A stretch of 24,000 nt of DNA. Source: Alteromonadaceae bacterium. GTDB lineage: Bacteria; Pseudomonadota; Gammaproteobacteria; Enterobacterales; Alteromonadaceae. The translations under genes were made by a program, and so were the position numbers. Positions 1,969 through 23,015 of this stretch are shown piece after piece; positions within the stretch are counted from its first letter, which is position 1, and the number at the start of each line of letters is the position of its first letter. The notes beneath the pieces are model-generated. The model was given only the letters and a program-made list of their open reading frames with translations. It was not told the DNA's origin and ran no database searches. The stretch is taken from contig CAXRGH010000135.1 of assembly GCA_964230195.1 (NCBI GenBank), forward strand, positions 2,714 through 26,713, written 5' to 3'.

Positions 1969-3966
1969 ATGCAAATCAGTACAGTAAAGACTCAAAGTCA
2001 GTTATTAATGGGTATTTTGCTTTTCTTTTCACTCTTAACCACGGCACTTTCCCATATCAACTTTTCACGGATTAACAAGTCAATCCATACCATTGTTGAT
2101 GAACACTTAGTGGGATTGGAAAAAGGTTACGCCCTTCAACATTCAACACAGACCCTGCTCAGTCTGCTTTTGCAAGCAAATTATGCAACTCAATCATCAG
2201 AAATCGATGATATCAAACAACAGTTTGACCAACTCACATCAGCGCTAAAACAAGACTCATCCCAATATCAGCCTCATACAGATAAAGAACTCAAACCGCG
2301 GATGTTCATGGAAGAAACATCAGAGGTTATCGCCCACAAACGTCAACAAATAGGACTCACTGAAGAAATAAATCAAGTCCGTGACAAACTGCTGATGGAA
2401 CTACAAGATGTGTCTATCGCACTTGAAGATCTCGATTACTTAGACCTGTCCAACCAATCCGTGGTTTCCGGAATCTCCGCCAACATTGATAATGGGCTAA
2501 CCCCATTTACCAAAATCAGTAGTGTAGTGGATACCGAGGCAGATTTTGCAACGATGAGGCAAGATCTAAACTTTGCTTACAGTGACGTCCAACAACAACT
2601 CAAGTTTCTAACGCGTTTGGTCGAGGGTAGTGAAGAGGCTGATGAGATAGCGCTGGAAATTTCGACACTCATGACGGATATTCAAAATGATGTTTCCACT
2701 CTGATTTCACTTGCTGTGAAGCGCAACCAGATCGCGCAACTTCAAAACTCAAGCCTCAATGCTGCAACCGACTACATATCCGAATTTGACCAGTTGATCA
2801 CCACGACACTCAAGCTCTTACAGACGCGAGTCAACCAGTCGAAGACTGTCGTTGTTGATACATCTGCAAACAGTAAAACCGCAAACATCGTTGCTCTTGC
2901 GGTAACCTTACTCATATTCAGTACTATTTTTTGGGTGCTGAATAAACGCGTGCTTCGGCCACTCACGACATTACAGGGTATCTTGAGGCGAGTCGCTTCG
3001 GGTGATTTGACTCAGCAATTTGACTCGAAAACAAAAAACGATGAGTTTTATCATTTAGCAGAGAACGTTAATCAAGTTGTGAATTCATTTCATACAGTGA
3101 TTAATGACATGCAACAAAGAGCAGCGAAACTACAAACTCAAAACCTGAGTGATATCCAACTTCGGGATGCCATGTCCTCCCAAGTGGAGAACCTCATCCA
3201 ATTCATGTCTGAACTGGATGACACACTTGTGACCATCAACGAAGGATGGCAAACCAATGGTAAATTGTTGACCGAAAACGAACACAAAGTCATGGCGTCA
3301 ATGGAAACCAGCCACGCCATTACAGACAGCATGAAAACTTGCATACAACAGTTGCAAACCCAACAACAAGCTACTCAAAATAGTGCTGACACTATTGACG
3401 AGCTAACACAAGATGCCAGTCGAGTGTCAGAGGTCGTGGCTATCATTAATGCGGTTGCTGAAAAAACCAACTTACTCGCCCTTAATGCCGCAATAGAATC
3501 AGCAAGAGCGGGCGAGCACGGCAGGGGATTTGCCGTTGTTGCAGATGAAGTACGAACTCTTGCGCAAACCACCCAAGAATCCACCGCACGAATAGAAGCG
3601 GTAATTAAGACTCTGATGGAAAACACCGAGCATGCCAAACACTTAATTCAATCTTCAACTATCCACGCTGTTGAGACAGTAAAAGCAATTGAATCTGTTA
3701 ACCAACAATTTGGTGTTATCAACCAGGCGAATCATGATTCAGTCGCGATAGTGAATCAAATTAAAGAAAGTAGACAACACCAATTGGCATTACTTAATAC
3801 TCTCAAAAAATCCGCAGACAATGCCTATGCCACCGGAAATCATGCGAAGCACGCAATCGAAGAAACTCGTGCATCAGTATTAGCCAACGATGAAATGACA
3901 AGCAAGATGAAACAAACAGTCGACAGATTTCATGTCAAACACTCTGCGGTCGCGAGCGACAGTTGA
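1969..3966 (+). CDS. Methyl-accepting chemotaxis protein (large helical periplasmic domain, TM2, HAMP, signalling domain)
   Basis: N-terminal TM segment, about 290-aa periplasmic region, second TM ([18 protein letters not shown]), HAMP ([22 protein letters not shown]), and the invariant MCP hairpin tip [31 protein letters not shown]. Confidence 0.9.
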
Positions 3967-7160: not shown

Positions 7161-7511
7161 TTAAATCTGTACCAACAAGCGATTATCTTCAATCTTCACA
7201 GGATAAGTTGAAAGCTTGTGCTCGGGTGATTCAAAGCATTCCCCCGTTAATAGCGAAAAGCGTTGCTTATAAAGAGGAGAGGCGATGACCGGTTCATCTC
7301 CAATCGACCCTATAATTCCACGGTAGATGACATTCGCTTTACCAACTGGATCCCAATTTGACGTTGCATAAAACGATGTTTCGCCAGCATTAGACACCCT
7401 ATAAATAGCCAGTTGCTGACCATTGACTAAGGCACAGACTGAGGTGTTAGGGGTTAGAGAATTAAGGTCGCAGATCGCATGCCAATCTGGGATGGAGTTC
7501 AATTTGCTCAT
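7161..7511 (-). CDS. nirD: NAD(P)H nitrite reductase small subunit (Rieske-like fold)
   Basis: 116 aa. Has WHAICDLNSLTPNTSVCALVNGQQLAIYRV...SPLYKQRFSLLTGEC, typical of NirD. Lies 15 nt downstream of nirB. Confidence 0.9.
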   Translation of the reverse strand: MSKLNSIPDWHAICDLNSLTPNTSVCALVNGQQLAIYRVSNAGETSFYATSNWDPVGKANVIYRGIIGSIGDEPVIASPLYKQRFSLLTGECFESPEHKLSTYPVKIEDNRLLVQI

Positions 7512-7526
7512 GTTTTTTCTCCAATA

Positions 7527-10058
7527 TTAAACGGTTTTGATATCGATCAATTGCATTCTTTCTATTTCCGACACGGGCTTTATTTGACCTCGCTCTTCAG
7601 TGAACTGTATGTGTGTGTCAATATCATCCGCATTAATGAACTGTTTGAATCGCAACATCTTCTCCGGCGATTCAATGGTTTTTTTCCACTCGCACTCATA
7701 AGCCCCAATCACTTGCTCCATTTGAGCTTCTAATTCATGATTGATACCTAAGCAGTCATTGATAATTACCTCTCTCAAGTAATCTAATCCGCCTTCAAGG
7801 TTATCCATCCAAACGGAGGTGCGTTGTAAACGACCCGCAGTTCGTATATAAAACATTAAAATTCGATCGATATAAGCAACCAATGTCTGGTCATCAAGAT
7901 CAGTCGCGAATAAGTCTGCATGCCTCGGTTTCATTCCGCCATTACCGCAAACGTAAAGATTCCAACCGTTTTCAGTTGCGATAACACCAATGTCTTTGCT
8001 TTGAGCTTCTGCGCATTCCCGAGTGCAGCCAGAAACCGCAAATTTTAGTTTATGAGGAGCACGTAACCCTTTGTATCGATTCTCAAGATGAATTGCTTGC
8101 CCGACTGAATCTTGCACACCATAACGACACCATGTACTTCCCACACAGGATTTCACGGTACGAACCGCTTTCGCGTAGGCATGCCCCGTTTCAAATCCAT
8201 TATCTAAAAGCTGTTTCCAGATTTCAGGCAATTGATCGACACGAGCGCCGAACAAATCAATACGTTGTCCTCCGGTAATTTTTGTATACAGGTTATAGGT
8301 CTTCGCAATACTGCCAATGGCGATGAGTTGTTCAGGCGTGATTTCCCCTCCGGCAATTCTGGGCACGACCGAATAGCTACCATCTTTCTGCATGTTTCCT
8401 AAATAGATATCGTTAGTATCTTGAAGCGGCAAATGCTCAGTTTTCAGTACGTATTCGTTCCAGATAGAAGCCAGAATAGATCCCACCGTCGGTTTACAAA
8501 TATCGCACCCTAAGCCTTTACCGTAGCGATCTAACAGTTCATCAAACGAACGAATGTCATTCACTTTAACCAGATGGAAAAGCTCCTGACGTGAATACTC
8601 AAAATGCTCACAAATGGCTTTAGATACTTCAATCCCTGACTTCTCTAGTTCGCTATCAACAACAGACTTCAGTAAAGCACTACAACCTCCACAACCGGTT
8701 CCTGCTTTGGTGCATGATTTAACGTCGGCAATATTGCATGCGCCACTACCAATAGCATTAATGATGTCGCCCTTCGACACGTTATGACAAGAACAAATCG
8801 TGCTACTATCTGGTAGTATGTCGTTGCCCATCGTTGGGGCGTCACTAGCGCTCGGTAAGATCAATGATTCAGGGGCATCACCGAGAGGGATTTGATTGAG
8901 GTGATATTGTAGTAAGGTATCATATTCGCTCGCATCTCCGACTAAAACCGCACCTATTACCCGTTGATGTGATTCGTCTACCACCAATTTTTTGTAAACG
9001 TCAGTGACTGAATTGGCATATACGTAACTTTTCGCGCCATCTGTTTTTCCGTGAGCATCACCGATCGATGCGACATCAACCCCGAGCAACTTAAGCTTGG
9101 TGCTCATATCAGCCCCTTCAAAAGGCTGTTTTTGACCGACCAAACGATTGGCTACCGTGCGGGCCATAGCATAACCTGGTGCCACCAATCCAAAGATTTG
9201 ATCATCCCAAGCAGCGCATTCGCCAATAGCATAAATGTCAGGCTCTGACGTCTCGCAATAATGATTGATGCTAATACCGCCGCGAGCACCAATGGATAAA
9301 TCGATCTGATCCGCTAGCTCATCGTGTGGACGTATACCTGCAGAGAAAACGATCATATCAGTCTCTAAGTGGGTACCGTCACTAAAATTCATGCGATATC
9401 GCGATGACTTTCCTTCAATAATCTCAGTGGTTGCCTTACCTGTATGAACACCAACACCAAGCTCTTCAATCTTCTTACGTAGAATGTCACCACCCATTTC
9501 ATCAACCTGAACCGACATTAATCGTGGAGCAAATTCTACAACATGAGTTTCAAGGTCGGCCTGTTTTAACGCATTAGCAGCTTCAAGCCCAAGAAGCCCT
9601 CCACCAAGAACAACTCCTTTCTCACTTTTCTCTGCTGATGACTTAATTTCATGTAAATCGTCGATAGTCCGATACGTCAAACAGTGAGGTTGGTCATTAC
9701 CTGGAATACTGGGAACAAAGGGATATGAACCGGTTGCGAATATCAGGACATCATATTCAAAGACATCACCGCTTTCAGTAATAACAACTTTGTTAGCTTT
9801 ATCAATGTTTTTCACCCAAGCACTAAGTCGATAGTCAATACCGTGTTCATCATAATACTCTGTTGTTGTCAGCGATAATGCACCTTCCGATGTTCCGTCA
9901 AAGAACGATGACAAGTGCACACGATCGTATGCCAAGCGCGATTCACCTGATAGCACAAGGATAGATGCGTTCAGCTCGGACTGAATAGCTTGCTCGATAA
10001 AATAATGACTCACCATGCCATTACCTATGATCACTATACGTTCTCGAGTTGTTACCAT
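7527..10058 (-). CDS. nirB: NAD(P)H-dependent assimilatory nitrite reductase large subunit (FAD/NAD, BFD-like 2Fe-2S, siroheme/4Fe-4S domains)
   Basis: N-terminal IVIIGNGMVSH dinucleotide fold. BFD-type CSCHNVSKGDI...CTKAGTGCGGC. Sulfite/nitrite reductase cluster motifs SCVGSTWCRYG and VSGCTRECAEAQSKD. 843 aa, as for NirB. AGGAG RBS. Confidence 0.95.
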   Translation of the reverse strand: MVTTRERIVIIGNGMVSHYFIEQAIQSELNASILVLSGESRLAYDRVHLSSFFDGTSEGALSLTTTEYYDEHGIDYRLSAWVKNIDKANKVVITESGDVFEYDVLIFATGSYPFVPSIPGNDQPHCLTYRTIDDLHEIKSSAEKSEKGVVLGGGLLGLEAANALKQADLETHVVEFAPRLMSVQVDEMGGDILRKKIEELGVGVHTGKATTEIIEGKSSRYRMNFSDGTHLETDMIVFSAGIRPHDELADQIDLSIGARGGISINHYCETSEPDIYAIGECAAWDDQIFGLVAPGYAMARTVANRLVGQKQPFEGADMSTKLKLLGVDVASIGDAHGKTDGAKSYVYANSVTDVYKKLVVDESHQRVIGAVLVGDASEYDTLLQYHLNQIPLGDAPESLILPSASDAPTMGNDILPDSSTICSCHNVSKGDIINAIGSGACNIADVKSCTKAGTGCGGCSALLKSVVDSELEKSGIEVSKAICEHFEYSRQELFHLVKVNDIRSFDELLDRYGKGLGCDICKPTVGSILASIWNEYVLKTEHLPLQDTNDIYLGNMQKDGSYSVVPRIAGGEITPEQLIAIGSIAKTYNLYTKITGGQRIDLFGARVDQLPEIWKQLLDNGFETGHAYAKAVRTVKSCVGSTWCRYGVQDSVGQAIHLENRYKGLRAPHKLKFAVSGCTRECAEAQSKDIGVIATENGWNLYVCGNGGMKPRHADLFATDLDDQTLVAYIDRILMFYIRTAGRLQRTSVWMDNLEGGLDYLREVIINDCLGINHELEAQMEQVIGAYECEWKKTIESPEKMLRFKQFINADDIDTHIQFTEERGQIKPVSEIERMQLIDIKTV

Positions 10059-10075
10059 AAAATTCTCCTGTAACG

Positions 10076-10110
10076 AAAAAAGCCCACCTCGCGCATTCGC
10101 GAGGTGGGCT
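10076..10110 (-). terminator. Strong intrinsic terminator in the nirB leader (candidate NasR-controlled attenuator)
   Basis: Minus strand: agcccacctcgcg-aatg-cgcgaggtgggct, a perfect 13-bp GC-rich stem with a 4-nt loop, followed by tttttt. It ends only about 17 nt before the nirB RBS/ATG. Confidence 0.85.
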
Positions 10111-10121
10111 TCGTTGCCTAC
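10104..10121 (-). promoter_or_regulatory. Candidate ANTAR/NasR target hairpin (antiterminator) overlapping the 5' arm of the nirB leader terminator
   Basis: Minus strand: guaggc-AACGAA-gcccac (5 bp plus one A.C mismatch). The hexaloop has A at position 1 and G at position 4. The 3' arm gcccac belongs to the terminator 5' arm, so the two structures are mutually exclusive. Confidence 0.5.
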
Positions 10122-10203
10122 TGTGGATTGAAAGATTCTTTCACTTCAACCCTGCTTTGTTTCGTAAACGCCATTAACCGTTTACACATTGTGTAGTTTA
10201 AAA

Positions 10204-10219
10204 AGCATAATTCATGCCA
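10204..10219 (-). promoter_or_regulatory. Sigma54 (-24/-12) promoter candidate for nirB-nirD-cobA...
   Basis: Minus strand TGGCATgaattaTGCT. The GG-to-GC spacing is exactly that of the consensus TGGCAC-N5-TTGCW. It shares TGGCATG with the two other boxes in the window. Confidence 0.55.
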
Positions 10220-10301
10220 AGGAATTAACACACTGTTTTAAATGAATTTTATTATTTCTTCGTTTAGACAGCCCGTCGACATTGCTCCAAAATTGTGAAG
10301 C

Positions 10302-10318
10302 CGCACTGTTTAAGTGCA
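10302..10318. promoter_or_regulatory. Candidate NtrC-type enhancer dyad upstream of the nirB sigma54 box
   Basis: CGCACT-gttta-AGTGCA (minus strand TGCACT-N5-AGTGCG) against the NtrC consensus TGCACC-N5-GGTGCA. It lies about 85-100 bp upstream of the -24 element. It could alternatively act as a weak hairpin after the kinase gene. Confidence 0.35.
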
Positions 10319-10336
10319 TTAATTTTTATTATTAAC

Positions 10337-12031
10337 TCATGGCGCCAGATAATATTGAATGATAATGATCGCAAACAGAACCCCTGATATTAGCTGCCAA
10401 AATACCACTGGGTTACGCTGTAATAAAGGAGGGCGTCTACGTTCAGTATATTTAACATTTGGGTGTCGAAGGTCATAAAGGAACTCAGAAATTTCTTGGT
10501 ATCGGTTATCAGGGCTAACCTTAAGTGCGCAACGTAATGTATCGTCTATCCAAAGAGGTATATCTCGTTGAGAGTCTAATACGCTTCGATATGAGAGCCT
10601 ATTTTGAGCTGATATAGTACGAGCTTTGGCAACATCCGTTCCATAAGGATGACGGTCAGACAACATTTGATAACAGACCGCTGCAAGCGAGTATAAATCA
10701 GACACTGGCCGTGGAAAATCACCGATAAAATATTCAGGTGCAGCATAAATAGCCGTTCCTGGTATAGCTCCCTGACTTTGATATCCTATTCCAGCCGCGC
10801 CAAAAATATGTACAGAACCCAAATCAATTAATTTGATATTACCATCGTTTGTCAGTAATACATTTGCTGGACGAATGTCTTGATGTAATAACGAGCTTCG
10901 ATGAATGGCTTGTAATCCTTTCCCCATTTCCTCTGTTACATATCGAATCATCTCGATTTGACGTTCAGGATTGTCCATCAACCATTGGGCTAATGTTTGC
11001 CCTTCTATATATTCAATTAAGATATAGGCCTTGCTTGGTGTCGTTGGTAGATGAGCCCGAACAACATGTCTGGAGGTTATTCTTCTCAAGGCCCATTGCT
11101 CCATTCCGAGTTGTTCAAAGGCGACAGGGTCGTCGGCACACTCTAAACTCAAGCATTTTAAAGCAAATAATGATTCGGCTTTATCCTTTACCAAATACAC
11201 ATGGCTTCTTGGGCTTTGATACAAGCTCCGTATTACTTGAAGTCCATCGACTTTCTCACCTTCATTTAATGGTGCTGGTGTTAATAATTTCTCCGGCTCA
11301 TGTTGGGTGCGTTCACTCAGGCCATCGATTCGAATGACTTGTAACGTTAAGTTATCGGTAGCGCCAAATTGCAACGCCTTATCCATCCATTGGCTCAGTG
11401 TGTGATCGTCGTTAAAGAATACTGCATTATCATAGTCATTGATTATCAATGTCTCGATAATATCGGACAGACCATCGGTTAGTAGTAGCAAGACATCGTC
11501 AGATTCCAACTGATGAGTACTATACCGTAAGGGCTTGATATCGGGCATTCCCAAACCTGCAGATAAGTAATATTGGCCGGCTTCAGTTGCCACTTCATCA
11601 TCCTCAGTTAAAAGGGTTAACTGTTTGTTTCGTAATAAATAAGCTTGGGAATCGCCGATATCAAAAAGGTGACAGATATTATCCTTAATAACAGCCCCAG
11701 TGAAGGTACAGACGTAGCCCTTGTCAAGATTTAAATGGAGGTCACGAGATTTAGAATTAGTATATAAATTGTTGTTTATAAGCGACAATAATTGGCGACA
11801 ACTCTTTTCGGTCGACCAAATATCCGGCGTAAGATAATACTCTTTTATAAATTGCTGAGTTGCATAGTGGCTTGCTGCACCACTTACCGAGCTTGAACTT
11901 ATTCCGTCAGCAATTGCGAAGGCAAATCCCTTAGTTTTTGTATGAGCCTCAGTATCAATATATGCGGCGCATGCGTCCTGATTAGTTGATTTTATGCCAG
12001 CTATTGATGTTGATACAAAAGAAATATTCAT
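10337..12031 (-). CDS. Bifunctional PP2C-type Ser/Thr phosphatase / Hanks-type Ser/Thr protein kinase with a C-terminal TM anchor
   Basis: N-terminal PPM motifs (NQDA, FAIADGISSS, FDIGDSQAYLL, LLLTDGLSD, DNLTLQVIRI). Kinase motifs: FALKC (VAIK-like Lys), HQDIRPANVLL (catalytic loop, non-RD), IDLGS (DFG-like), APEY. C-terminal hydrophobic helix VVFWQLISGVLFAIIIIQYYL. Confidence 0.88.
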   Translation of the reverse strand: MNISFVSTSIAGIKSTNQDACAAYIDTEAHTKTKGFAFAIADGISSSSVSGAASHYATQQFIKEYYLTPDIWSTEKSCRQLLSLINNNLYTNSKSRDLHLNLDKGYVCTFTGAVIKDNICHLFDIGDSQAYLLRNKQLTLLTEDDEVATEAGQYYLSAGLGMPDIKPLRYSTHQLESDDVLLLLTDGLSDIIETLIINDYDNAVFFNDDHTLSQWMDKALQFGATDNLTLQVIRIDGLSERTQHEPEKLLTPAPLNEGEKVDGLQVIRSLYQSPRSHVYLVKDKAESLFALKCLSLECADDPVAFEQLGMEQWALRRITSRHVVRAHLPTTPSKAYILIEYIEGQTLAQWLMDNPERQIEMIRYVTEEMGKGLQAIHRSSLLHQDIRPANVLLTNDGNIKLIDLGSVHIFGAAGIGYQSQGAIPGTAIYAAPEYFIGDFPRPVSDLYSLAAVCYQMLSDRHPYGTDVAKARTISAQNRLSYRSVLDSQRDIPLWIDDTLRCALKVSPDNRYQEISEFLYDLRHPNVKYTERRRPPLLQRNPVVFWQLISGVLFAIIIIQYYLAP

Positions 12032-12050
12032 GACTACCTCAAAGCATAAA

Positions 12051-12069
12051 AGGGTGCAAATGGCACCCT
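12051..12069 (-). terminator. Intercistronic hairpin / partial terminator between nirC and the phosphatase-kinase gene
   Basis: Minus strand: agggtgc-cattt-gcaccct (7-bp stem) followed by tttatgcttt. It lies 19 nt before the ATG at 12031. Confidence 0.4.
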
Positions 12070-12094
12070 ACTGTATATATACCGTACTATTTCG

Positions 12095-12928
12095 TTATTC
12101 CGGAATAGTATCCGCCACTTGTAATTTACGCTTTGGTGCCGTTCGGTAATGCGTTGAGTATAATGTAAGCCCCGTAAATGCGAGACCACCAACCAGATTA
12201 CCAAGCGCTGTTGGGATCTCATTCCATATGAAGTAATCCATCACGGAGAAGTCGCCCCCCATAATCAATCCAAACGGGAACAAAAACATATTTACAACTG
12301 AATGCTCAAATCCCATGAAAAAGAACAACATGATCGGCATCCACATTGCTAGCACTTTACCACTTACATGAGTTGAAATCATGGCTCCAACAACACCCAT
12401 TGATACCATCCAGTTACAAAGCATACCCCGGAGAAAGATAGTCAACCAACCAGCAACACCGTACTCTGCGTAGCCCAAAGTACGAGATTCTCCGATAACA
12501 GATACTTTCTCAGCAATAGCACCACCATCAGTATTGAAACCATAAGTGAACATAAAGGCCATCATGAATGCAACGGTCAATGCGCCCGCAAAATTACCTA
12601 AAAAGACCAATCCCCAGTTTCTCAGTATCTGAGGCCACGTCACGCCTGGCCGACGCGCCAACCATGCAAGAGGCGTCAAGACAAAAACCCCAGTTAAAAG
12701 ATCAAAACCCATCAGATATAACATACAAAATCCAACAGGGAACAAGACGGCACCAAGCAAAAATACGCCGGTTTTCACCGCGACTGTAATTGCAAATACC
12801 GCAGCTAAAGCTAAGATGGCGCCAGCCATAAAAGCCCTAACAAGAGTATCTCTTGTTGACATATATATTTTTGACTCACCGGCGTCTACCATTTTGGTAA
12901 CGAACTCGGCGGGAAGTAAGTAAGCCAT
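12095..12928 (-). CDS. nirC: Formate/nitrite transporter (FNT) family channel, probable nitrite transporter
   Basis: 277 aa with six predicted hydrophobic helices. FNT signatures include LLGAVLFPVGFCMLYLMGFDLLTG, GNFAGAL, GMLCNWMV and FFFMGFEHSVVNM. Sits in a nitrite reductase / NasR context. Confidence 0.88.
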   Translation of the reverse strand: MAYLLPAEFVTKMVDAGESKIYMSTRDTLVRAFMAGAILALAAVFAITVAVKTGVFLLGAVLFPVGFCMLYLMGFDLLTGVFVLTPLAWLARRPGVTWPQILRNWGLVFLGNFAGALTVAFMMAFMFTYGFNTDGGAIAEKVSVIGESRTLGYAEYGVAGWLTIFLRGMLCNWMVSMGVVGAMISTHVSGKVLAMWMPIMLFFFMGFEHSVVNMFLFPFGLIMGGDFSVMDYFIWNEIPTALGNLVGGLAFTGLTLYSTHYRTAPKRKLQVADTIPE

Positions 12929-12990
12929 TTGTGCAACTCCTAAAATTTAACAACACTAAGACGTAAACAAGGTGTATTTTTCATCCCCAT

Positions 12991-13027
12991 AAAAAAAGCG
13001 CCCACCCCCACAGCTGAGGATAGACGC
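12991..13027 (-). terminator. Intrinsic terminator in the nirC leader (candidate NasR-controlled attenuator)
   Basis: Minus strand: gcgucuaucc-(10-nt loop)-gggugggcgc, 10 bp including 3 G.U pairs, followed by uuuuuuu (7 U). It lies about 60 nt upstream of the nirC ATG. Confidence 0.65.
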
Positions 13028-13037
13028 CTTTGTCCAT
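13020..13037 (-). promoter_or_regulatory. Candidate ANTAR/NasR target hairpin overlapping the nirC leader terminator
   Basis: Minus strand: auggac-AAAGGC-gucuau (6 bp including one G.U). The hexaloop has A1 and G4. The 3' arm gucuau is part of the terminator 5' arm gcgucuaucc. Confidence 0.55.
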
Positions 13038-13068
13038 AGAATTTCATATTACCTTGTACCTGTAGACA

Positions 13069-13084
13069 AGCAAACCACATGCCA
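13069..13084 (-). promoter_or_regulatory. Sigma54 (-24/-12) promoter candidate for the nirC operon
   Basis: Minus strand TGGCATGTGGTTTGCT, with correct GG/GC spacing. It is 14/16 identical to the box upstream of nasR. Confidence 0.65.
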
Positions 13085-13341
13085 CACATTACAAGAAAAT
13101 AAAAATAGACAATAATTACATGACTTTATGTGTTTTCATGGAATGTATAGTTTCAATCACGTATTTGCTATGATTGTTTTTAGTGCAATTTGAAATAATA
13201 TTTGCACCAAAAAAATACCAAATTGAACTTTGTATTTTTTCTTGGCCTGTTCCGCGTCATCCATTTTTTACTATACATAACAGTGTTATTGGTTCTATAA
13301 CACCCGGACTACAATCAAAAGTATAGCAATCCTCGAAAGAC

Positions 13342-13357
13342 TGGCATGCAGTTTGCT
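13342..13357 (+). promoter_or_regulatory. Sigma54 (-24/-12) promoter candidate for nasR
   Basis: TGGCATGCAGTTTGCT, about 37 nt upstream of the nasR ATG. Matches TGGCAC-N5-TTGCW in spacing and core. Confidence 0.65.
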
Positions 13358-13393
13358 GCTCAATGTTACTGAGTTAATAGATTCTGAGGTTCT

Positions 13394-14647
13394 ATGGCAA
13401 TTGAAATGAAATCAGCAACCAACAAGTCTGACAGCTTGTTTCAATTCAATCAGCGATTTTTGGACGCTACTAGGCAAGCAAAAAATGAAGCTCTTGAGCA
13501 ATTATTGATCAATTGTCAATTGGTCAATGCTACCGCAATGCTTGTTCATCAACTCCAACGAGAGCGCGGGCTTTCATGCATTTATCTAGGTAATCGAGAT
13601 CCACTTTTAAAACAGGAATTGCTGCAACAACATCAACGGTCAACTTCGTATAGCGACATATTACAACAACTCTTAGAACATACAATTCTTGATAAAAAAG
13701 GAAATCATAGTGAACTACGATTGATTTGTTGTATATCGAACGCGTTTCAAAAGCTTCAACTCGTCGTCAAGCAGCGTCGTGAAGTGCTGCAATGCAATGA
13801 TACGGCCGAAATCACTCTTGATAGGTACGCTGACACGATATTAGCCTTGTTTGTCATTATCTTAGAAGCTGCAGATCTTACCTTAGACCATCAAATCAAT
13901 CGCCATTTAATGGCATTGTCCAGCTTAATGTTTGGTAAAGAGTTTGTGGGCCAAGAACGTGCGCGAGGAGCATCGTTTTTTAGCCACCGTTGTAACAATG
14001 AATTATTATCTGAACAATTAAGCACCTTAAAACAGAAACAACAACAACATTTTTCGCTATTTCAACAGCTTGCATCAACCGAAGTGAAAAGTATTTGGCA
14101 TGCAAACGTAAGCTCACACGAACTACAGCGCCAAGTCACGCAGCTTCGATTAATTATAACGTCAGCAGCGAGTGCAAATGAAAGCGAAGATCTCAGTGAT
14201 GTTTGGTTTACGGTCTGGACAAGCTGGATTGACCAAGTTCAACAAGTAGAACAAATAATGTGTTCTCAATTATTTTGTTTAGCCGAAGCTCAAATAGCAC
14301 GACAAGGGCGAAAGAATGAAACAACCGTCTCTCTCATGCACCCCTTTGGATCAATGGATTGGTTTACAGAGCAAACATCCTTTGAGAGCTGCCCTAGCCG
14401 CACCGTTCTCGATTTCTTGCAATTTCACGCTGAAAATGCCGAAGAACTGTCTAAGATTGTGAATGAGAAAGAAAAGCAACTCCAAGAACAGAACATCATT
14501 AAACAAGCAAAGTTACTACTCATAAAACATTATCGATTGTCTGATGAGCAGGCTTACAAACAACTTCGTTCGGCGGCAATGAAAAACAATACAAGCATCA
14601 TCCAAATTGCTGAAATGATTCTTAAAAAGTATCACAAAGGTCAGTAA
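13394..14647 (+). CDS. nasR: Nitrate/nitrite-responsive transcription antiterminator (NIT sensor domain + C-terminal ANTAR RNA-binding domain)
   Basis: The C-terminus IIKQAKLLLIKHYRLSDEQAYKQLRSAAMKNNTSIIQIAEMIL fits the ANTAR consensus. The N-terminal ~300-aa helical region with VHQLQRERGLSCIYLG and GQERARGASFF is typical of NIT domains. The gene is divergent from a nitrite cluster that carries leader terminators. Confidence 0.85.
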   Translation: MAIEMKSATNKSDSLFQFNQRFLDATRQAKNEALEQLLINCQLVNATAMLVHQLQRERGLSCIYLGNRDPLLKQELLQQHQRSTSYSDILQQLLEHTILDKKGNHSELRLICCISNAFQKLQLVVKQRREVLQCNDTAEITLDRYADTILALFVIILEAADLTLDHQINRHLMALSSLMFGKEFVGQERARGASFFSHRCNNELLSEQLSTLKQKQQQHFSLFQQLASTEVKSIWHANVSSHELQRQVTQLRLIITSAASANESEDLSDVWFTVWTSWIDQVQQVEQIMCSQLFCLAEAQIARQGRKNETTVSLMHPFGSMDWFTEQTSFESCPSRTVLDFLQFHAENAEELSKIVNEKEKQLQEQNIIKQAKLLLIKHYRLSDEQAYKQLRSAAMKNNTSIIQIAEMILKKYHKGQ

Positions 14648-16269: not shown

Positions 16270-16354
16270 TGAATGAAACAAGTTTGATGTGAGTCTGACA
16301 CTTGGGTGTCCATACTTGACGGTTGAGAATCAATTGTTCAGGAGGAACTACCCA

Positions 16355-17077
16355 ATGGATCATGAAGAGAAGTTACTCGAATTTTTATACGTTGCCCCAG
16401 TCGCCCTTATTCAATTTGATGGTAGCGGCAATGTCACCTTAGCTAACCCGAGAGTTGCTCAACTGTTCAACCGCTACGCACCGGGAGGCTACTTTGCTAA
16501 TTTCCTAACTTTCCTTGATGACGTGTTGCCCGAGTTGAAAAAGGATATTGTGAATTTTCCTCATAAAGGTGGTCAGATCATGGAGAATAAGCGAGTCTGC
16601 TTGCAAGCACCTTCACAACTCGCGCAAGAAGAATTGTGGATGGACGTTACCGTCATGAAACAAGATGATGAGCGCTATATTGCATCCCTCAACAACGTGA
16701 CCGACCAAGTAGTTGCAGAAAACGAGCGTTATGTGTCAGAGCAATATCTCACCCAGCTGTTAGAAAAAGTAAACAAACATGTTGCTTTCACCCTCGACCC
16801 CAACGGCATTATCAACAGCTGGAACATTACAGGTGAAACCTATATTACCGATAGTCCTTATGCACTCGGGAAAGTGCTGTCACAGCTATTCCCCATCAGT
16901 AACCAAGATAACTCATTGATACTTGCACAAGCGAAAGAAATGGGGCAACACAAAACCACAATCCAATTTGCAGACAAAAGTGGGGAGTCACACGCTTCTT
17001 GCTTATATGTCTCAGGAATACATGACCAAAGAGATAAGTTTCAAGGCTTTTCGGTCGTGTTAACGCTGGGCGAATAG
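16355..17077 (+). CDS. Output-less tandem PAS-domain protein; first gene of the PYP cluster
   Basis: Two PAS-like cores: VAPVALIQFDGSGNVTLANPRVAQLF... and HVAFTLDPNGIINSWNITGETYIT...GKVLSQLFP. No effector domain. The ATG at 16355 is preceded by AGGAGG at 9 nt; the track start at 16289 is GTG. Confidence 0.65.
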   Translation: MDHEEKLLEFLYVAPVALIQFDGSGNVTLANPRVAQLFNRYAPGGYFANFLTFLDDVLPELKKDIVNFPHKGGQIMENKRVCLQAPSQLAQEELWMDVTVMKQDDERYIASLNNVTDQVVAENERYVSEQYLTQLLEKVNKHVAFTLDPNGIINSWNITGETYITDSPYALGKVLSQLFPISNQDNSLILAQAKEMGQHKTTIQFADKSGESHASCLYVSGIHDQRDKFQGFSVVLTLGE

Positions 17078-17106: not shown

Positions 17107-17454
17107 ATGAATTTTGACTCAACCAATATCCGCGAATTGCACTCGGGAGCTTCTCAGTTTAATGCGGCAAACTTTGGCATTGTTAAGATGGATCACGATG
17201 GCAATGTCACTGATTACAATAGTAGCCAAGAACGGTTTACCGGTATGTCTAAAGCATCGGTGATGGGAAAGCACTTCTTTTCTCTAGTTGCACCTTGTAC
17301 CAACAACTTCATGGTTGCTCAGAAATATGACAACCAGTCGTCATTAGATGAGAAGGTGCCGTATACCTTCACATTAAAGATGACGCCAACCCCCGTTACA
17401 TTGCGCTTACTCAAAGACAGCAGCGCCCAATATTTGCTGTGTGATTGGTCGTAA
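17107..17454 (+). CDS. pyp: Photoactive yellow protein (PYP) homologue, stand-alone 115 aa
   Basis: Collinear with H. halophila PYP from memory. [24 protein letters not shown] aligns with [38 protein letters not shown] aligns with [26 protein letters not shown] aligns with YTFDYQMTPTKV. Chromophore Cys (C64=C69), Tyr42 and Thr50 equivalents are present. Position 46 is Gln and position 52 is Met. GGAGAG RBS. Confidence 0.8.
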   Translation: [115 protein letters not shown]

Positions 17455-17464
17455 TATCGCAATC

Positions 17465-17490
17465 ATAAGAAGGGGCTATCCCCTTCTTAT
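17465..17490 (+). other. Perfect 11-bp stem-loop between pyp and the transducer gene (RNA stabiliser / partial terminator candidate)
   Basis: ataagaagggg-ctat-ccccttcttat, starting 10 nt after the pyp stop. No U tract follows. The next RBS (caggagaga) comes immediately after. Confidence 0.5.
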
Positions 17491-17505: not shown

Positions 17506-18672
17506 ATGTGGAAAAGGATTTTTACAGGTACAAGCGCCGTATTGGCGTTAGCGTTGTCAGTGGCAGGTTTGTTTTTCCAAGTAAAACAAGATGCCGCTGG
17601 GTTGAGTTGGATCTACGGCTTGAGCAGTTTGCTTCTGATAACGTCAATCGCTGCCGTCTGGTTGTTTTACGGCAAGCCGCTATTCAACATCATTCAGCAA
17701 ATCCCCAGCCATGGTCTAGATGATACCTCTGATGATGTCTCTCACCTCAATCAAGGACTCAATCGACTTCAGAGCCAAATGCTGTCGGCCCAGCAACTTT
17801 GTCATCAAAAGCAGCAACAGCTCGATGCATTAACTCAAGCAATCGCTGTGCTAAAGCTCGAATTAGATGACCCCACGGCTTCGCAAACTAACACCAATAA
17901 ACAGGATCAACAGTCTATTCAAGACGCTTTTACGCAATCCGAAAATGCCGCGGATTATGCCACTGAGACGTTTGAAACCTTATATCACTCAGTCAACACA
18001 CTTGGCACTAGCTATCAAGACGTTCGAAAAAGTGCCGAAAAGCTGAACAATAATGCCAATGAGAGTGCAGAGATGGTCAATACCTCTCGCGCCTCGTTAG
18101 AACAATTATCCATGCAAGTATCAGAGATTGCAGCCGTCACCAACAGTATTGCTGATATTGCGAGTATGACACAGCTACTGGCACTAAATGCTTCCATTGA
18201 AGCGGCTCGTGCAGGTGAGTCGGGGAGAGGTTTTGCGGTCGTTGCTGATGAAGTGAAAAAACTCGCTGAACAAACCGATGAAGCCACTAAGCGTATCACC
18301 TCAATATCGCAAAGTATCTCAACCGCAAGTCAAGCGTCATCTGATGCAATGACCACCATTGCTGACCGCATGATCAGTGTGAGGGAAACTCTCACTGAGG
18401 TGGTATCCCACATTGAAACCCAATGGTCCAGCGTCCAAGGCGTTTTAGGACAAATGGGGCAAGCAGCTGGCACTGTCAGCGGCCTTAAAGGGATTCTTAA
18501 TACATCTAAAGAGACGGCGTTAATGCCATTCCTTGATACTACCGCGAGTCAAGACACACGCCATTATTTTCACTCCATTGATTCCGTATTAGCAGAGTTT
18601 AGTATCCCTCTAGAAGTCAAAGATACAGAAGCAAACCCATCAGAGTATGACCACTCAGAGCTTTCCGTTTGA
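17506..18672 (+). CDS. MCP-type transducer with a TM hairpin and no periplasmic sensor domain
   Basis: Two N-terminal TM helices ([17 protein letters not shown] and [23 protein letters not shown]) are separated by only about 6 residues. The cytoplasmic coiled coil carries the MCP tip [34 protein letters not shown]. 388 aa. Confidence 0.85.
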
Positions 18673-18695
18673 AGCCAACTACAAGTGAGCCTGTT

Positions 18696-19502
18696 ATGTT
18701 AGATGCACCTATTCCATTTTCTTTGCCGCCCCAAGAGTCAATTAAGGCGCAATCTCCTCAACTTGTTTTAGATGGCAAAAGCTTATCCATAGAACAAGTG
18801 ACTCAATTCATCAAAAAACAACATCACGTGTCCCTGTGCAAGCGAGCGGCTTCACCTGATGCATTGCAAGTGAGTTGTGATGTGATGGCGCAACAACTGA
18901 ATGACGGCAAGCAAATCTACGGGGTCAACACCTTGTTTGGAGGGCTTGCTAACTTAGGGGTCGATGATCCTATTGCGCTGCAGCAAGAACTCATCACATC
19001 TCACCATTCGGGCGCGGGAAATGACCTCGCCATTGACGATGTTAGAGTAGCCATGTTATTGCGGGTGAATTCCATTTGTCCACTGTTAGAGCAAAAAGCA
19101 TCACCATTGAGTGTCCACTTCCCCGTGCACGCTGAACAATTTAATCAAAATCTGAACTCTCAAGGTTTCGGTTCAGCGCAGTTAACGCAATCCGCTGGGC
19201 ATTTGTTAAAAACACATTTGGCAGCCAGTTTGATAATCTATCTACAAGCCGCTTATATTCGGGCAGATCAAAAACACTTATCCATTGACTCCGCGTTTAG
19301 CCCTTCCACTCGTCGACTAATTCGGGTATTTTGTGAACTTAACGGGTTGTCACTCACCGACAATTGGGCAGTACTGTCAGGTGTTCGCAACGAGCTGAAA
19401 CAAGCGTTTGTGGCTAATGTTGAACACGGCATTGACACATTCGCATTTGAATTCACGCAGGATGCGGTATCTTCTGCTCAAACGGATGAAAATGATTTAT
19501 GA
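18696..19502 (+). CDS. Aromatic amino-acid ammonia-lyase (HAL/TAL/PAL family) homologue, internally truncated and lacking the MIO-forming Ala-Ser-Gly core; possibly a pseudogene
   Basis: IYGVNTLFGGLANLGV...LQQELITSHHSGAGNDLAIDDVRVAMLLRVNS matches the lyase N-terminal signature (YG[IV]NTGFG...LQ.NL..SHA.G.G..L....VR..M..R.NS). The protein is only about 268 aa against about 500-520, and no GxxGASGDL motif is present. The tail (LAASLIIYLQAAYIR...LTDNWAVLSGVRNELKQAF) weakly resembles the family C-terminus. The ATG at 18696 is preferred over the TTG at 18669. The stop overlaps the kinase start (ATGA). Confidence 0.6.
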   Translation: MLDAPIPFSLPPQESIKAQSPQLVLDGKSLSIEQVTQFIKKQHHVSLCKRAASPDALQVSCDVMAQQLNDGKQIYGVNTLFGGLANLGVDDPIALQQELITSHHSGAGNDLAIDDVRVAMLLRVNSICPLLEQKASPLSVHFPVHAEQFNQNLNSQGFGSAQLTQSAGHLLKTHLAASLIIYLQAAYIRADQKHLSIDSAFSPSTRRLIRVFCELNGLSLTDNWAVLSGVRNELKQAFVANVEHGIDTFAFEFTQDAVSSAQTDENDL

Positions 19503-21757
19503 CGACACTTGCCTCGCTATTGACTCAACAAGGTACACCCATTGAGTTGTCATACGACACAGATGGACTCAAGAACGCTGAAAATAACCAATCCATTCGC
19601 TTCATGGATGATGTCATTAGTCGTCGCATTCGCTATACCCGAAATTGGTGTCAAAAACATCAAAAAACTCATTCCTTTGACCATGCCTTTTTTCCCGAGG
19701 AGACAGGGCACAAGACGTTGTTGTATCGGCGAGTAACACTGGATCCTGATGGCCTCAAGATCAGTCCATTTCTAGCTCAAGAAGGTTATGTATTTAGCGA
19801 CGCATTTGAATCTCAAATTATTAATGCCTGTAACGACGCGGTATTACTCTGTGAGGCTGAGCCGATTGCCAGCCCAGGCCCTCGCATTATTTACTGTAAT
19901 AAAGCATACGAAACAATGACCGGTTACTCAGCAGCGGAAATGCTGGGAAATACACCACGTATTTTGCAAGGTGAGCAGTCATCGAAATTAGCCATTAAAA
20001 ACATCGCTATTGCACTACGAAAATGGCAGCCCATCAAACAACATATCGTTAATTATCGTAAAAATGGCGATGCTTTTTGGGTTGAATTAAATATTTCGCC
20101 GGTTACTGACGAAACAGGATGGTACTCCCATTGGATTTCCATTCAGCGGGATCTATCAATGGAAATAACCCACCAGCAGCATCAGTATCACATGCAAAGA
20201 ATGATGGAACGCAGTGGAGTGGGTACGTGGATTTATGATGGCCAAAAAGAACAGTTTAATTTTGACTGTAATGGTCTCGCATTACTCAATCTCGATACCG
20301 CTCAACACTGCGTTGCCTTGAGCGCTGTCACAGAACAACTCACTAAGCATCACTCATGTGATTTGAAAGCAAAGTTAGACGAAGCCTTAAACAGTGTATC
20401 CGGTTTAGAAATCGTGCTAGCCATGGGTGATGATCCAACAAAATATTTTCAGTTCAAAGGTGAGCGTTATTTTGATGTCACCCAACAGCACGCGACGTTA
20501 TCGGGTATCATGTTGGATATTACCAAAGAAAAACAGACGCAACTTGCTTTACAAGAACAGCGCGAGGCGATGATTGAAAACGGTAAACTTGCCGCCCTTG
20601 GTCGACTTGCTGCTGGTGTCGCCCATGAAATTAACAACCCACTGTCAGTCATCAATGTCATGTTAGATATTCTGGATATCAAATTACCTGCGGGCGATAT
20701 CAACTATCTGCAAGAGCAGCAGTTCTCGACAAAGCTTCGTGATGCGTCTGAGCGAATCGAACAGATAGTGTCGAGTTTATCCGACATTTCAAAAGCAAAT
20801 CGTAAGCGGGATACGGCGGTATCAGTCAATGTCACACGAGTAACCACAGAAACACTAGCACTGTTTCATCAGCTTTATCAGGCAGATGGGATTCAGATCA
20901 TTGATATTATTCCCAACCAACCTGCTTATGTTATGGCGCCACCCGGCACAATCCAACAGGTCATTGTTAATCTCTTAAATAATGCAAGAGACGCAGTTTC
21001 AGGAAACACCAGTAAGCGCATCAGTGTCACCGTTGAGATACTATCAACACACGTCGTGTTGCATGTAAAAGACAATGGAGAAGGGGTACCAGAGGCGATC
21101 CAGAAAACGTTATACGAACCTTTCGTCACAACGAAACCACCTGGCAAAGGCACTGGGTTAGGGTTATCAATTGTGCATGGGTTGATATCATCCTTGGGCG
21201 GAAAAATCACCTGCCATTCCGCTGATGTCGGCGCTTATTTTAGTGTTTCACTGCCTTTATGCGAGAGCATCGCAAGTGCATGTGCAGGTCCACAAGGTAT
21301 GACAACGATAGGGAACAATCAAAATTCAACTGCATTGCTTACCGCTTCTGGGAGCACAGTGTCATGCCTAGTGGTTGACGACAATCAACAACTTGCTCAG
21401 TCACTATCATCGTTACTGACGTTGTTAGGTTGTGATACCTGCATAGCTGAGAGTGGTGAGTCTGCGATTCATTTACTTAAAAAGCAGTCGTTTGATCTCA
21501 TTTTGACGGATATCAAAATGCCATCAATGGACGGTTGGGCCCTACTGGATATTATCCATAGAGAAAACCTTGCACCTGACAGCTTGTGCTATGTCATTTC
21601 AAGTCTCGGTAATAATGGGTTAAAAGCGCCATCTGTAGACTCAACTCGAGTTAACGGTATTTTGCCTAAACCGGTAAGTCGTACCGAGCTCATCGGTATT
21701 ATTGACGCGGTGAAAGAAAATCGACAACAGCAACAAACACTGCAAACAATATCCTAA
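19499..21757 (+). CDS. Hybrid sensor histidine kinase: unknown N-terminal region, LOV-like PAS (Cys replaced by Pro), second PAS, HisKA, HATPase_c, receiver
   Basis: LOV-like segment: PRIIYCNKAYETMTGYSAAEMLGNTPRILQGE...IVNYRKNGDAFWVELNISPVTDETG..ISIQRD. H-box AAGVAHEINNPL, N-box LLNNARDA, G1 DNGEGV, G2 GKGTGLGLSIV. Receiver: VVDDNQ...DLILTDIKMPSMDG...PKP. Confidence 0.88.
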   Translation: MTTLASLLTQQGTPIELSYDTDGLKNAENNQSIRFMDDVISRRIRYTRNWCQKHQKTHSFDHAFFPEETGHKTLLYRRVTLDPDGLKISPFLAQEGYVFSDAFESQIINACNDAVLLCEAEPIASPGPRIIYCNKAYETMTGYSAAEMLGNTPRILQGEQSSKLAIKNIAIALRKWQPIKQHIVNYRKNGDAFWVELNISPVTDETGWYSHWISIQRDLSMEITHQQHQYHMQRMMERSGVGTWIYDGQKEQFNFDCNGLALLNLDTAQHCVALSAVTEQLTKHHSCDLKAKLDEALNSVSGLEIVLAMGDDPTKYFQFKGERYFDVTQQHATLSGIMLDITKEKQTQLALQEQREAMIENGKLAALGRLAAGVAHEINNPLSVINVMLDILDIKLPAGDINYLQEQQFSTKLRDASERIEQIVSSLSDISKANRKRDTAVSVNVTRVTTETLALFHQLYQADGIQIIDIIPNQPAYVMAPPGTIQQVIVNLLNNARDAVSGNTSKRISVTVEILSTHVVLHVKDNGEGVPEAIQKTLYEPFVTTKPPGKGTGLGLSIVHGLISSLGGKITCHSADVGAYFSVSLPLCESIASACAGPQGMTTIGNNQNSTALLTASGSTVSCLVVDDNQQLAQSLSSLLTLLGCDTCIAESGESAIHLLKKQSFDLILTDIKMPSMDGWALLDIIHRENLAPDSLCYVISSLGNNGLKAPSVDSTRVNGILPKPVSRTELIGIIDAVKENRQQQQTLQTIS

Positions 21758-21832
21758 GCTTGTTACAAAGTGTGCGTTAAATCCTAGGGCATTGTCGACT
21801 AATCTTTTGTTAACGTGTGTTTAAGGATAAAC

Positions 21833-22549
21833 ATGAAAATACTGTTAGCAGAAGACGACCCTCAACTTGGCCCCATCATTGCCGACTACCTCAATCTCCA
21901 CGATTTTGAGGTCACTCATGTTGACTGCGGCAAAGACGCCATGAACGCGTTGGCGGAAACCTCCTTTGATGCCATTGTGCTTGATCTCACACTACCGGAT
22001 GAAGATGGTCTAGTGATTTTGCGTAAGATTAGACAGTGGCTTGAGACTCCCGTGCTGATTTGCTCCGCAAGAGGGACCGATAATGATCGAATTACCGGCC
22101 TAGAATTCGGTGCTCGCGACTACTTAACCAAACCCTTCGCGTCAAAAGAATTGGTGTTGCGACTGCGCAATCTTGTCAACGGCGTGAGCCAATCTCACAA
22201 TAAGCCTGCCCAAGATATTGAGTTTGGTCCCTTCCGCCTCGATCAACAGAAAAAACAACTGATTAATACTCAAATAGACAGTAGTATTCCCTTGACGCCA
22301 AAAGAATACGGGTTGCTTCTCATTATGGGACGTCGTCCCGGTCATGTGTTTTCCCGTAGTGATCTTATTGATGGCCTTCCACAACTTGAAGGTCCAGAAA
22401 CCTTACGTGCAATTGACATACTGATCAGCCGACTTCGACGGAAAATTGAAACGGATGCAAGGGCGCCTCAATACATCAAAACCGTCACTGGATTTGGCTA
22501 TAAACTCAGCACTCACAACTGCCTATCTACTGCAATAGACGACGCCTAG
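21833..22549 (+). CDS. OmpR/PhoB-family response regulator (receiver + winged-helix DNA-binding domain)
   Basis: MKILLAEDDPQL, DAIVLDLTLPDEDG, and KPF in the receiver. C-terminal LTPKEYGLLLIM...SRLRRKIE...IKTVTGFGYKL. The ATG at 21833 has AAGGA upstream; the track start at 21815 is less likely. Confidence 0.9.
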   Translation: MKILLAEDDPQLGPIIADYLNLHDFEVTHVDCGKDAMNALAETSFDAIVLDLTLPDEDGLVILRKIRQWLETPVLICSARGTDNDRITGLEFGARDYLTKPFASKELVLRLRNLVNGVSQSHNKPAQDIEFGPFRLDQQKKQLINTQIDSSIPLTPKEYGLLLIMGRRPGHVFSRSDLIDGLPQLEGPETLRAIDILISRLRRKIETDARAPQYIKTVTGFGYKLSTHNCLSTAIDDA

Positions 22550-22553
22550 CGGC

Positions 22554-22868
22554 TTACCAATCGCCCACTTTTCCCATACTGTTAGCGGGTATCTTGTCAC
22601 CAAGCACAACATGACTGAAAGAGACGTGAGGGCAATCCTGTTTCAGTTGTGACTGAAAAGCTTCCATATCAAACTGGGTATGCAATGTAGGGACGACGAA
22701 CAAATGTAGCTCAGAGAGTCCAGACTGCTCAAAGACTTTTACTGCACAATCAGACACGGTGGACAAACCCAACACTTGGCCTTTAACCTCAGACAGTGAT
22801 ACGTTCTTTCCATTAATCTGAATCTTTTTATCATTTTGCGCTAAACATTTTATGTTATTGAAGTGTAG
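22554..22868 (-). pseudogene. 3' remnant of an adenylate-forming enzyme gene (acyl/4-coumarate-CoA ligase-like C-terminal domain only)
   Basis: Open frame from the stop at 22869: ...LAQNDKKIQINGKNVSLSEVKGQVLGLSTVSDCAVKVFEQSG..LHLFVVPT...FQSQLKQDCPHVSFSHVVLGDKIPANSMGKVGDW. This matches motifs A8-A10 (GR.DD.IKI.G..V.L.E[IV]E..L......D.AV......G....FVV....IP....GK). The approximately 400-aa N-terminal adenylation domain is absent. A possible further fragment (FHGDELMLKR, out of frame) lies near 22915-22975. Confidence 0.6.
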
Positions 22869-23015
22869 TTAATTTTTGCTATTTTTCCACCTTGATACAG
22901 CAAGCAAACAGAGAACATTTACGTTGGATATGGCATTTTGATAGCCCATCTTTTAAGCATTAATTCGTCGCCATGAAAAGGTCAATTAACACATGCTTCC
23001 AGCTTCTAAAGCGCT

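Follow-up and report, generated by a model that had tools for sequence, protein, structure and literature searches.

The window analysed here, 24,000 nucleotides from an Alteromonadaceae bacterium (assembly GCA_964230195.1, contig CAXRGH010000135.1, positions 2,714 to 26,713 of the forward strand), carries a chemoreceptor gene, mcp (17506..18672, + strand), clustered with the gene for a homologue of photoactive yellow protein (PYP). From its ATG start, mcp encodes a 388-residue methyl-accepting chemotaxis protein (MCP), a sensor-less chemoreceptor as judged by its open reading frame (ORF), Pfam, hydropathy and AlphaFold2 (AF2) modelling. An earlier note, made from the letters of this DNA, had described it as a candidate PYP-coupled transducer directly downstream of pyp. 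Alignments agree as to the neighbour: pyp (17107..17454, +) encodes a clade-C homologue of PYP, 115 residues long, that bears the motif APCTNNFM and keeps the equivalents of Tyr42 and Cys69. Upstream of pyp lies the gene for protein X (16355..17077, +), a free-standing tandem-PAS protein of 240 residues from its likely ATG, the mechanically called ORF beginning at a GTG at 16289. The ribosome-binding contexts of pyp and mcp match, as the note had remarked: the Shine-Dalgarno-like decamer TCAGGAGAGA stands 6-7 nt 5′ of mcp, and an identical decamer precedes pyp.

Hydropathy reveals two hydrophobic segments in the MCP, at residues 5-23 (TM1) and 36-54 (TM2), which with a short outer loop form a transmembrane (TM) hairpin at 17518..17667 (+). 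The AF2 model, built from 28 family members with a mean predicted local distance difference test score (pLDDT) of 78.7, places helices at residues 2-25 and 29-64 with a three-residue turn at 26-28. Together the two approaches put the outer loop at about 3-12 residues and agree with the topology first proposed, two adjacent TM helices with essentially no periplasmic domain; the original figure of about six loop residues was a fair one. The positively charged N-terminus (MWKR) fits a predicted topology with both termini inside the cell, and by hydropathy the hairpin is also present in most of 28 aligned family members.

Within the cytoplasmic part, the single Pfam match is MCPsignal (PF00015; residues 176-324, E 1.8e-27, 96.7 bits against a cut-off of 34.6), a domain also matched by 28 of 28 family members. 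HAMP, PAS, Cache and other sensor families gave no Pfam match in the window MCP or the 28 members even at E<=10, and the two HAMP models PF00672 and PF18947 found nothing in those members at the same threshold. The post-membrane linker (17671..17883, +), delimited by AF2, family alignments and hhalign, consists in the model of an AS1-like stretch, KPLFNIIQQ (residues 56-64), a disordered acidic segment (65-76) and a helix predicted with moderate confidence (77-121), and is weakly conserved across the family alignments except for a K/R-P motif. Comparison of this linker with a HAMP alignment by hhalign recovered the AS1-like stretch only (24 columns, probability 36%), and a cryptic HAMP domain was rejected on these and the Pfam results, just an AS1-like remnant being present after TM2. 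A hidden ligand-binding domain, the finding that the earlier note had held to be fatal to its proposal, was also looked for and rejected, the AF2 model being all-helical and without a globular domain. Pfam, hhalign and AF2 concur with the initial impression that no canonical HAMP or PAS domain is recognisable.

After a short break following helix 77-121, the model continues as a single long helical hairpin, the signalling bundle (residues 127-343; 17884..18534, +), identified by AF2, Pfam and profile alignment. Its pLDDT exceeds 90 at residues 141-335, with about 97 residues per arm around a tip at Glu238; a C-terminal helix (346-364) is weakly predicted and gives way to a disordered acidic tail. 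The signalling tip (residues 224-250; 18175..18255, +), placed by motif location and family alignment, is intact as first stated: its residues are mostly invariant in the 28-member family alignment, and by sequence it is assigned as the canonical CheA/CheW-binding motif. The best match of solved structure is Tm14 of Thermotoga maritima (TM0014, PDB 3g67), with which the family profile shares a gapless alignment of 151 positions, pointing to the same register and a short bundle, whereas Tsr has 14 extra residues over the same span. The bundle would comprise roughly 28 heptads ('28H-like' in the heptad classes of Alexander & Zhulin 2007), an estimate by length alone and not by class-specific hidden Markov models (HMMs). 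Tm14 differs from the window MCP in being soluble and without a link to PYP. Between the end of TM2 and the tip there are 183 residues, where Tsr has 176 and a second, conventional MCP of the window (665 aa, 4HB_MCP_1, HAMP and MCPsignal, 1969-3966) has about 195, and such a long stalk might let the tip reach a shared baseplate.

In a word-indexed search the MCP family comprised 29 clusters at 124-235 bits, the next matches being ordinary MCPs below 100 bits. Its members are 262-435 aa long, all but two of them 356-435 aa, and have PF00015 as their only domain. Besides the tip, the most conserved regions are two membrane-proximal segments at the ends of the hairpin, one closing the N arm with the family-specific pattern AFxQSxxAADYATxTFExIYMSIxxLG and a second on the C arm. 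For sixteen of the 29 members the longest contig is equal in length to that of a PYP or an X match, which is indirect evidence of co-occurrence. Against the orthologue in metagenome contig L011, mcp shows 8 synonymous and 4 non-synonymous differences, all four of the latter within the first 74 residues. The corresponding ratio (pN/pS) is about 0.15 and that of X is 0.08-0.09 within the window lineage; both genes look constrained, which suggests that purifying selection still acts on them there. Decay of mcp is not supported by the ratio, though the counts are small. In contig L010 (2597-3664; contig coverage 2.2x) mcp is split into ORFs of 165 and 168 aa; because the alignment contains five gaps and the L011 gene is intact at 388 aa, the split looks like an error of sequencing, not like a true pseudogene.

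The window PYP is 33% identical to that of H. halophila. Cys64 and Tyr37 correspond to Cys69 and Tyr42, and Thr50, Phe62/63, Phe96 and Met100 are also kept. Position 52 is Met, and position 46 is Gln (Gln41; codon 17227-17229), the Glu46 proton donor being absent from the window PYP and from the four closest orthologues aligned, all of which have Gln. Data Set S3 of PMC9664959 places the Salinibius orthologue in clade C, with the residues Y-Q-C. A change private to the window PYP, Q60L (codon 17284-17286) in the otherwise conserved FFxQVAPC motif, is absent from four near-identical metagenome copies. The APCTNNFM motif is common to the window PYP and Burkholderiales-type clade C sequences, and the closest PYP among the species-representative genomes scanned is 73% identical. 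PYP profile matches in a search of representatives (P0214, P0310, P0235) include two-domain STAS-PYP proteins of about 233 aa and a pair of giant proteins, one of 4799 aa with 32 PYP-like stretches and one of 3417 aa with 18. For protein X, the AF2 model (mean pLDDT 80.5) has a PAS-A domain (residues 14-114), a connecting helix (116-139) and a PAS-B domain (142-238), and Foldseek matched it to the tandem-PAS structures DosP, HIF/ARNT, LOV-PAS and FixL. Identity of X with the 'PYP-binding protein' of Rhodobacter capsulatus was set aside by size alone (16 kDa versus about 27 kDa).

The gene order X-pyp-mcp-TAL, with the p-coumaroyl-CoA ligase gene (pCL) adjacent on either side, is found at every related locus with readable flanks, in about ten lineages. 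Carriers include Alteromonas, Glaciecola, two Vibrio-like strains, Salinibius and metagenomes, namely an Alteromonadaceae metagenome-assembled genome (MAG; L001/L018), Glaciecola (L003/L019) and Glaciecola UBA2563 (L014), Salinibius halmophilus (L005/L020), a coral metagenome (L006/L007), a Pseudomonadales MAG (L021), Vibrio sp. Of14-4 (L015), Alteromonas sp. LOR (L016), A. hispanica LMG 22958 (L017) and members of the window's own lineage (L010-L013); in L008/L009 the last 26 pyp codons stand at the contig end, upstream of mcp. The cassette is often accompanied by a PAS-HK-REC hybrid histidine kinase (HK) and an OmpR-type response regulator. In the window these are encoded at 19499..21757 (+; PAS-HisKA-HATPase-REC by Pfam) and 21815..22549 (+; Pfam Response_reg and Trans_reg_C). 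The kinase gene follows TAL at five of eight genome loci (L014-L018), and a similar response regulator gene abuts pCL in L001, L003 and L006. The PAS domain of the hybrid kinase is LOV-like and lacks the adduct-forming Cys, reading GNTPRILQG (19946-19972) in place of GRNCRFLQG; the orthologues in L001 and L006 read GRSPR[LI]LQG. In Salinibius, X is kept and no HK occurs within 6-8 kb of flank, and because of this cassette without a nearby kinase the minimal conserved signalling set is taken, from gene content, to consist of X, PYP and the MCP, with TAL and pCL alongside. None of the cassette loci viewed contains che genes.

The genetic linkage of mcp to the pyp and X cassette is well supported by these comparisons. 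The MCP might merely be co-regulated with its neighbours or hitch-hiking among them, sensing membrane or energy state through its hairpin or linker, or answering to an unlinked partner, and not to PYP or X. Nothing direct speaks for this, although the pyp-mcp spacer often contains a hairpin or terminator and sensor-less MCPs can take other inputs. Set against it, the MCP family is confined to the cassette over some 40-60% sequence divergence and several orders, and mcp is flanked by pyp on one side and by TAL, a chromophore gene, on the other; we regard this explanation as highly improbable. The hairpin in question is, in the window, an 11-bp stem-loop with no U-run after it (17465..17490, +; folding -18 kcal/mol, z = -2.8). 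Strong stem-loops of unrelated sequence occupy the same spacer position in L001, L003, L006, L015 and L016, followed by a U-run in the first three. This arrangement suggests either that expression is attenuated, so that more X and PYP than MCP is produced, or that the transcripts are separate. Promoter and terminator scans gave site counts no higher than those in shuffled sequence.

Clues on the role of X came from a wider survey, in which the clade-C PYP alignment with the APCTNNFM pattern was scanned over species-representative genomes and yielded 80 loci from many phyla. An mcp follows pyp at 8 of the 80, all of them marine gammaproteobacterial. The X HMM matches an ORF adjoining pyp in nearly all 80. 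In the marine gammaproteobacterial loci X always lies directly upstream of pyp; outside this group the matching ORF is directly downstream. The matching proteins comprise 36 fusions of the PAS-A part of X to a histidine kinase (about 410 aa), 25 fusions of tandem-PAS X to GGDEF, 8 with an extra C-terminal stretch lacking a Pfam match, and 1 (L022) that is partial and corresponds to the C-terminal half of X. Free-standing X was found at seven loci, all mcp-bearing, which are all those among the eight where the whole of X is readable. There are also natural PYP-X-output fusions, with pyp in frame with GGDEF or HK, in L050, L064 (Vibrio sp. WXL210), L033 and P0273. The X module, chiefly the PAS-A domain common to all architectures, is in this light the conserved companion of clade-C PYP, and the MCP would be one of three alternative outputs of a PYP-X module, the sole one unfused to X. 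The loci L022-L093 appear to share a conserved PYP-receiver PAS module that is not described in the literature cited here on PYP.

On balance we lean, with modest confidence, towards the reading that the product of mcp is the output transducer in a split taxis system with a soluble photoreceptor, present in some marine gammaproteobacteria. In such a system, blue light would turn holo-PYP to its signalling state, PYP would act on an X dimer, most likely via PAS-A, and X, alone or with PYP, would dock on the cytoplasmic stalk of the MCP or on the conserved membrane-proximal bundle ends, comparably to the action of the PAS domain of Aer or of CetB. A shift in the bias of the tip would then alter CheA activity and swimming, the TM hairpin serving as a membrane and array anchor only. 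As to the partner, the earlier suggestion of PYP and/or the tandem-PAS protein stands in that the MCP is sensor-less and cassette-linked in every readable locus, but it needs refining: from the comparisons, the tandem-PAS module is the partner to which PYP is most closely bound, and X may stand between PYP and the MCP. A stricter version, to which we give tentative credence short of even, holds that free X is the obligatory adaptor between a Gln46-PYP and a short, TM-anchored MCP without HAMP, forming a three-protein photoreceptor-transducer. The docking site of X would then be either the exposed two-helix stalk or the Gly-rich/aromatic membrane-proximal end of the bundle, and a single PYP-receiver PAS module would have been combined in evolution with outputs of three kinds: kinase, cyclase and chemoreceptor.

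A simpler arrangement would have light-activated PYP bind the MCP directly, as CetB does CetA, with X serving another branch such as the hybrid HK and response regulator. At all loci pyp is immediately upstream of mcp, and the PAS-HK-REC gene after TAL at five of the eight genome loci would offer X such a branch. Nature also provides a precedent in which PYP is fused straight to the C-terminus of a TM-hairpin MCP, without a PAS pair between them: Dohmen et al. (2025) described 12 MCP-PYP fusions, and found no MCP among 113 predicted pyp operons (PMC12826048). These fusions (e.g. P0363) resemble the window pair in combining PYP with a TM-hairpin MCP that lacks a periplasmic sensor. However, their PYP is C-terminal and a classical Glu46 one, and the similarity of the MCP part is just generic, reaching 73 bits against the family described here. 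As close relatives they were rejected on this score, and they appear to be an independent solution; by sequence comparison they would support signalling from PYP to an MCP in principle and not this particular pairing. Moreover, other clade-C PYPs are nearly always paired or fused with an X module, Salinibius keeps X without an HK in 6-8 kb, and X is free-standing solely alongside the MCP. Direct coupling that bypasses X is, in view of these points, rather unlikely, and a route through X remains our preferred form of the taxis reading.

The genes expected to supply the chromophore are damaged in the window. TAL is reduced to a 277-aa remnant (18669..19502, +), recognised by alignment to orthologues of 518-564 aa and by blastn. 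An in-frame deletion of 888 bp (296 codons), with its junction at 19066-19072 between copies of a 7-bp repeat, has removed the catalytic core including the GSIGASGDL (MIO) motif; blastn finds full-length TAL in metagenome contigs L010 and L011, which are 96-99% identical to the window. Of pCL, a 3′ remnant of about 100 C-terminal codons without a start codon was located by tblastn (22554..22871, -), residues 289-387 of the L001 pCL matching window positions 22856-22557 (E 9e-10). Its frame ends in IPANSMGKVGDW and a stop codon, with further stop codons upstream, where orthologous pCLs have 370-396 aa; as in orthologous loci, it lies tail-to-tail with the response regulator gene. Both genes are intact in the orthologous loci, and in the window both are broken. 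The likeliest explanation of the sequence is that this strain lost its capacity to make the chromophore recently; MCP, X and PYP are intact.

Several observations weigh against the taxis reading, whether in general or for this genome. The link between PYP and the MCP is drawn from gene order and co-occurrence, and sequence does not distinguish X from PYP as the contact partner of the MCP. Past about residue 335, the C-terminal part of the window MCP diverges from the family consensus. The light input from PYP to the MCP that the earlier note had envisaged is probably disabled in this genome, where neither TAL nor pCL is whole, barring a supply of p-coumaroyl-CoA from unlinked enzymes. PYPs with Gln46 make up 2.6% of those known and are uncharacterised; in H. 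halophila PYP, the E46Q mutation reduces the structural change (PMC12826048). Given the terminator-like hairpin, X-pyp and mcp-TAL may be separate transcripts. Across the MCP family no conserved methylation-type EE/EQ pairs were found, the sole such pair reaching half of the family (14 of 28) adjoining the tip at residue 255, nor was a CheR-docking C-terminal pentapeptide resembling NWETF. Because of these two absences classical adaptation of this MCP is doubtful on sequence grounds, and non-canonical methylation sites are possible; Tm14 is likewise reported to be without canonical methylation sites (bioRxiv 10.64898/2026.01.16.699579). In Vibrionales, 40H receptors are dominant and 28H ones 'exceedingly rare (only four instances)' (bioRxiv 10.64898/2026.05.11.724241), and a short, roughly 28H-like receptor is unusual where 40H dominates.

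Some of these features would also suit an output other than flagellar motility, with the MCP feeding a Che-like pathway for biofilm and cyclic di-GMP (c-di-GMP), type IV pili or gene expression, or forming separate arrays; light would then govern a lifestyle switch and not taxis. The shortness of the bundle (2 x about 97 residues, gapless to Tm14 and 14 residues shorter than Tsr), the rarity of 28H receptors in Vibrionales and the want of conserved methylation-type sites in the family all fit such a role. So do the GGDEF or HK outputs that clade-C PYP-X modules carry elsewhere, and, according to a report cited in PMC12826048, the PYP of Idiomarina regulates biofilm. Nevertheless, the tip is canonical and mostly invariant, the loci contain no che genes to hint at a dedicated pathway, and the TM2-tip distance (183 residues, near the 176 of Tsr and the roughly 195 of the HAMP-containing MCP of the window) suggests that a shared baseplate could be within reach. 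We consider a non-flagellar output distinctly unlikely, and a taxis output remains the preferred reading.

The idea of a sensor-less MCP adjacent to PYP is not new. Xing, Gumerov & Zhulin (2022) reported that clade-B PYPs, notably in Leptospira, adjoin sensor-less TM chemoreceptors, and proposed a CetA/CetB-like relay (PMC9664959). From sequence, their receptors and the one described here would be alike in that a sensor-less TM MCP is encoded beside a single-domain PYP; they differ in that the PYP here belongs to clade C with Gln46 and not to clade B, and in that a free tandem-PAS protein is added. For Salinibius, their Data Set S3 gives 'None' (the place of X), PYP and 'MCPsignal', followed by an aromatic amino acid lyase and an AMP-binding protein, and the text of PMC9664959 links clade C to GGDEF proteins and not to MCPs, leaving the Salinibius cassette undiscussed. 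The notion of a PYP-coupled transducer is, in sum, sustained by genetic linkage, but as an idea it had already been published for another PYP clade. What is new here is a discrete MCP family tied exclusively to a Gln46 PYP and a free tandem-PAS protein, the homology of X to input modules of PYP-adjacent kinases and cyclases, and the broken chromophore genes.

Two hallmarks of a CetA/CetB-type system, a TM-hairpin MCP and separately encoded soluble PAS proteins (here X and PYP), are found in the window. As described in PMC2628428 and PMC3558505, the CetA/CetB(/CetC) system of Campylobacter jejuni likewise combines a hairpin MCP without a periplasmic domain and separate, co-located soluble PAS proteins. 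Unlike the window MCP, CetA has a recognisable HAMP domain, and CetB is described as an FAD-binding redox sensor (PMC9664959), in contrast to the p-coumaric-acid PAS photoreceptor and tandem-PAS X of the cassette. Aer of E. coli offers a second parallel, with a membrane hairpin, a minimal periplasmic loop and a PAS domain that acts laterally on the membrane-proximal cytoplasmic part (PMC2628428). However, the PAS domain of Aer is fused N-terminally and acts on a HAMP domain, whereas here the PAS proteins are separate and an AS1-like remnant is all that is left. The transducers HtrI and HtrII receive their signal within the membrane from a seven-TM rhodopsin and contain HAMP, in contrast to the soluble PYP and X. 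They share with the window MCP a two-helix anchor and a separate photoreceptor, and are phototaxis MCPs, as discussed in PMC12826048.

Elsewhere in the window, a nitrite/nitrate assimilation block (7161-14647) includes genes for a NirB-like reductase (7527-10058), a formate/nitrite transporter (12095-12928) and a NIT-ANTAR regulator (13394-14647), and a PP2C phosphatase-Ser/Thr kinase fusion gene (10337-12031) lies inside it. The GC content of the window is 43%, and the nearest cassettes are in Glaciecola, Vibrio and Alteromonas.

How single-domain PYP hands on its signal is a question as old as its discovery, and publications of 2021, 2022 and 2025 continue to describe its partner as unknown (bioRxiv 10.1101/2021.06.01.446672, PMC9664959, PMC12826048). 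The cassette offers a small, conserved candidate chain that links PYP, a tandem-PAS protein and an MCP without a sensor, and strains in culture that carry intact versions are Alteromonas hispanica LMG 22958, Alteromonas sp. LOR, Vibrio sp. Of14-4 and Salinibius halmophilus. The window itself represents a natural 'chromophore-less' variant, a poor choice for demonstrating function and a possible negative control. The PAS module that accompanies clade-C PYP across phyla is a target for binding studies and optogenetic design, and if X does act as adaptor between PYP and the MCP, the cassette would be the first case of a single-domain PYP whose signal chain is defined.

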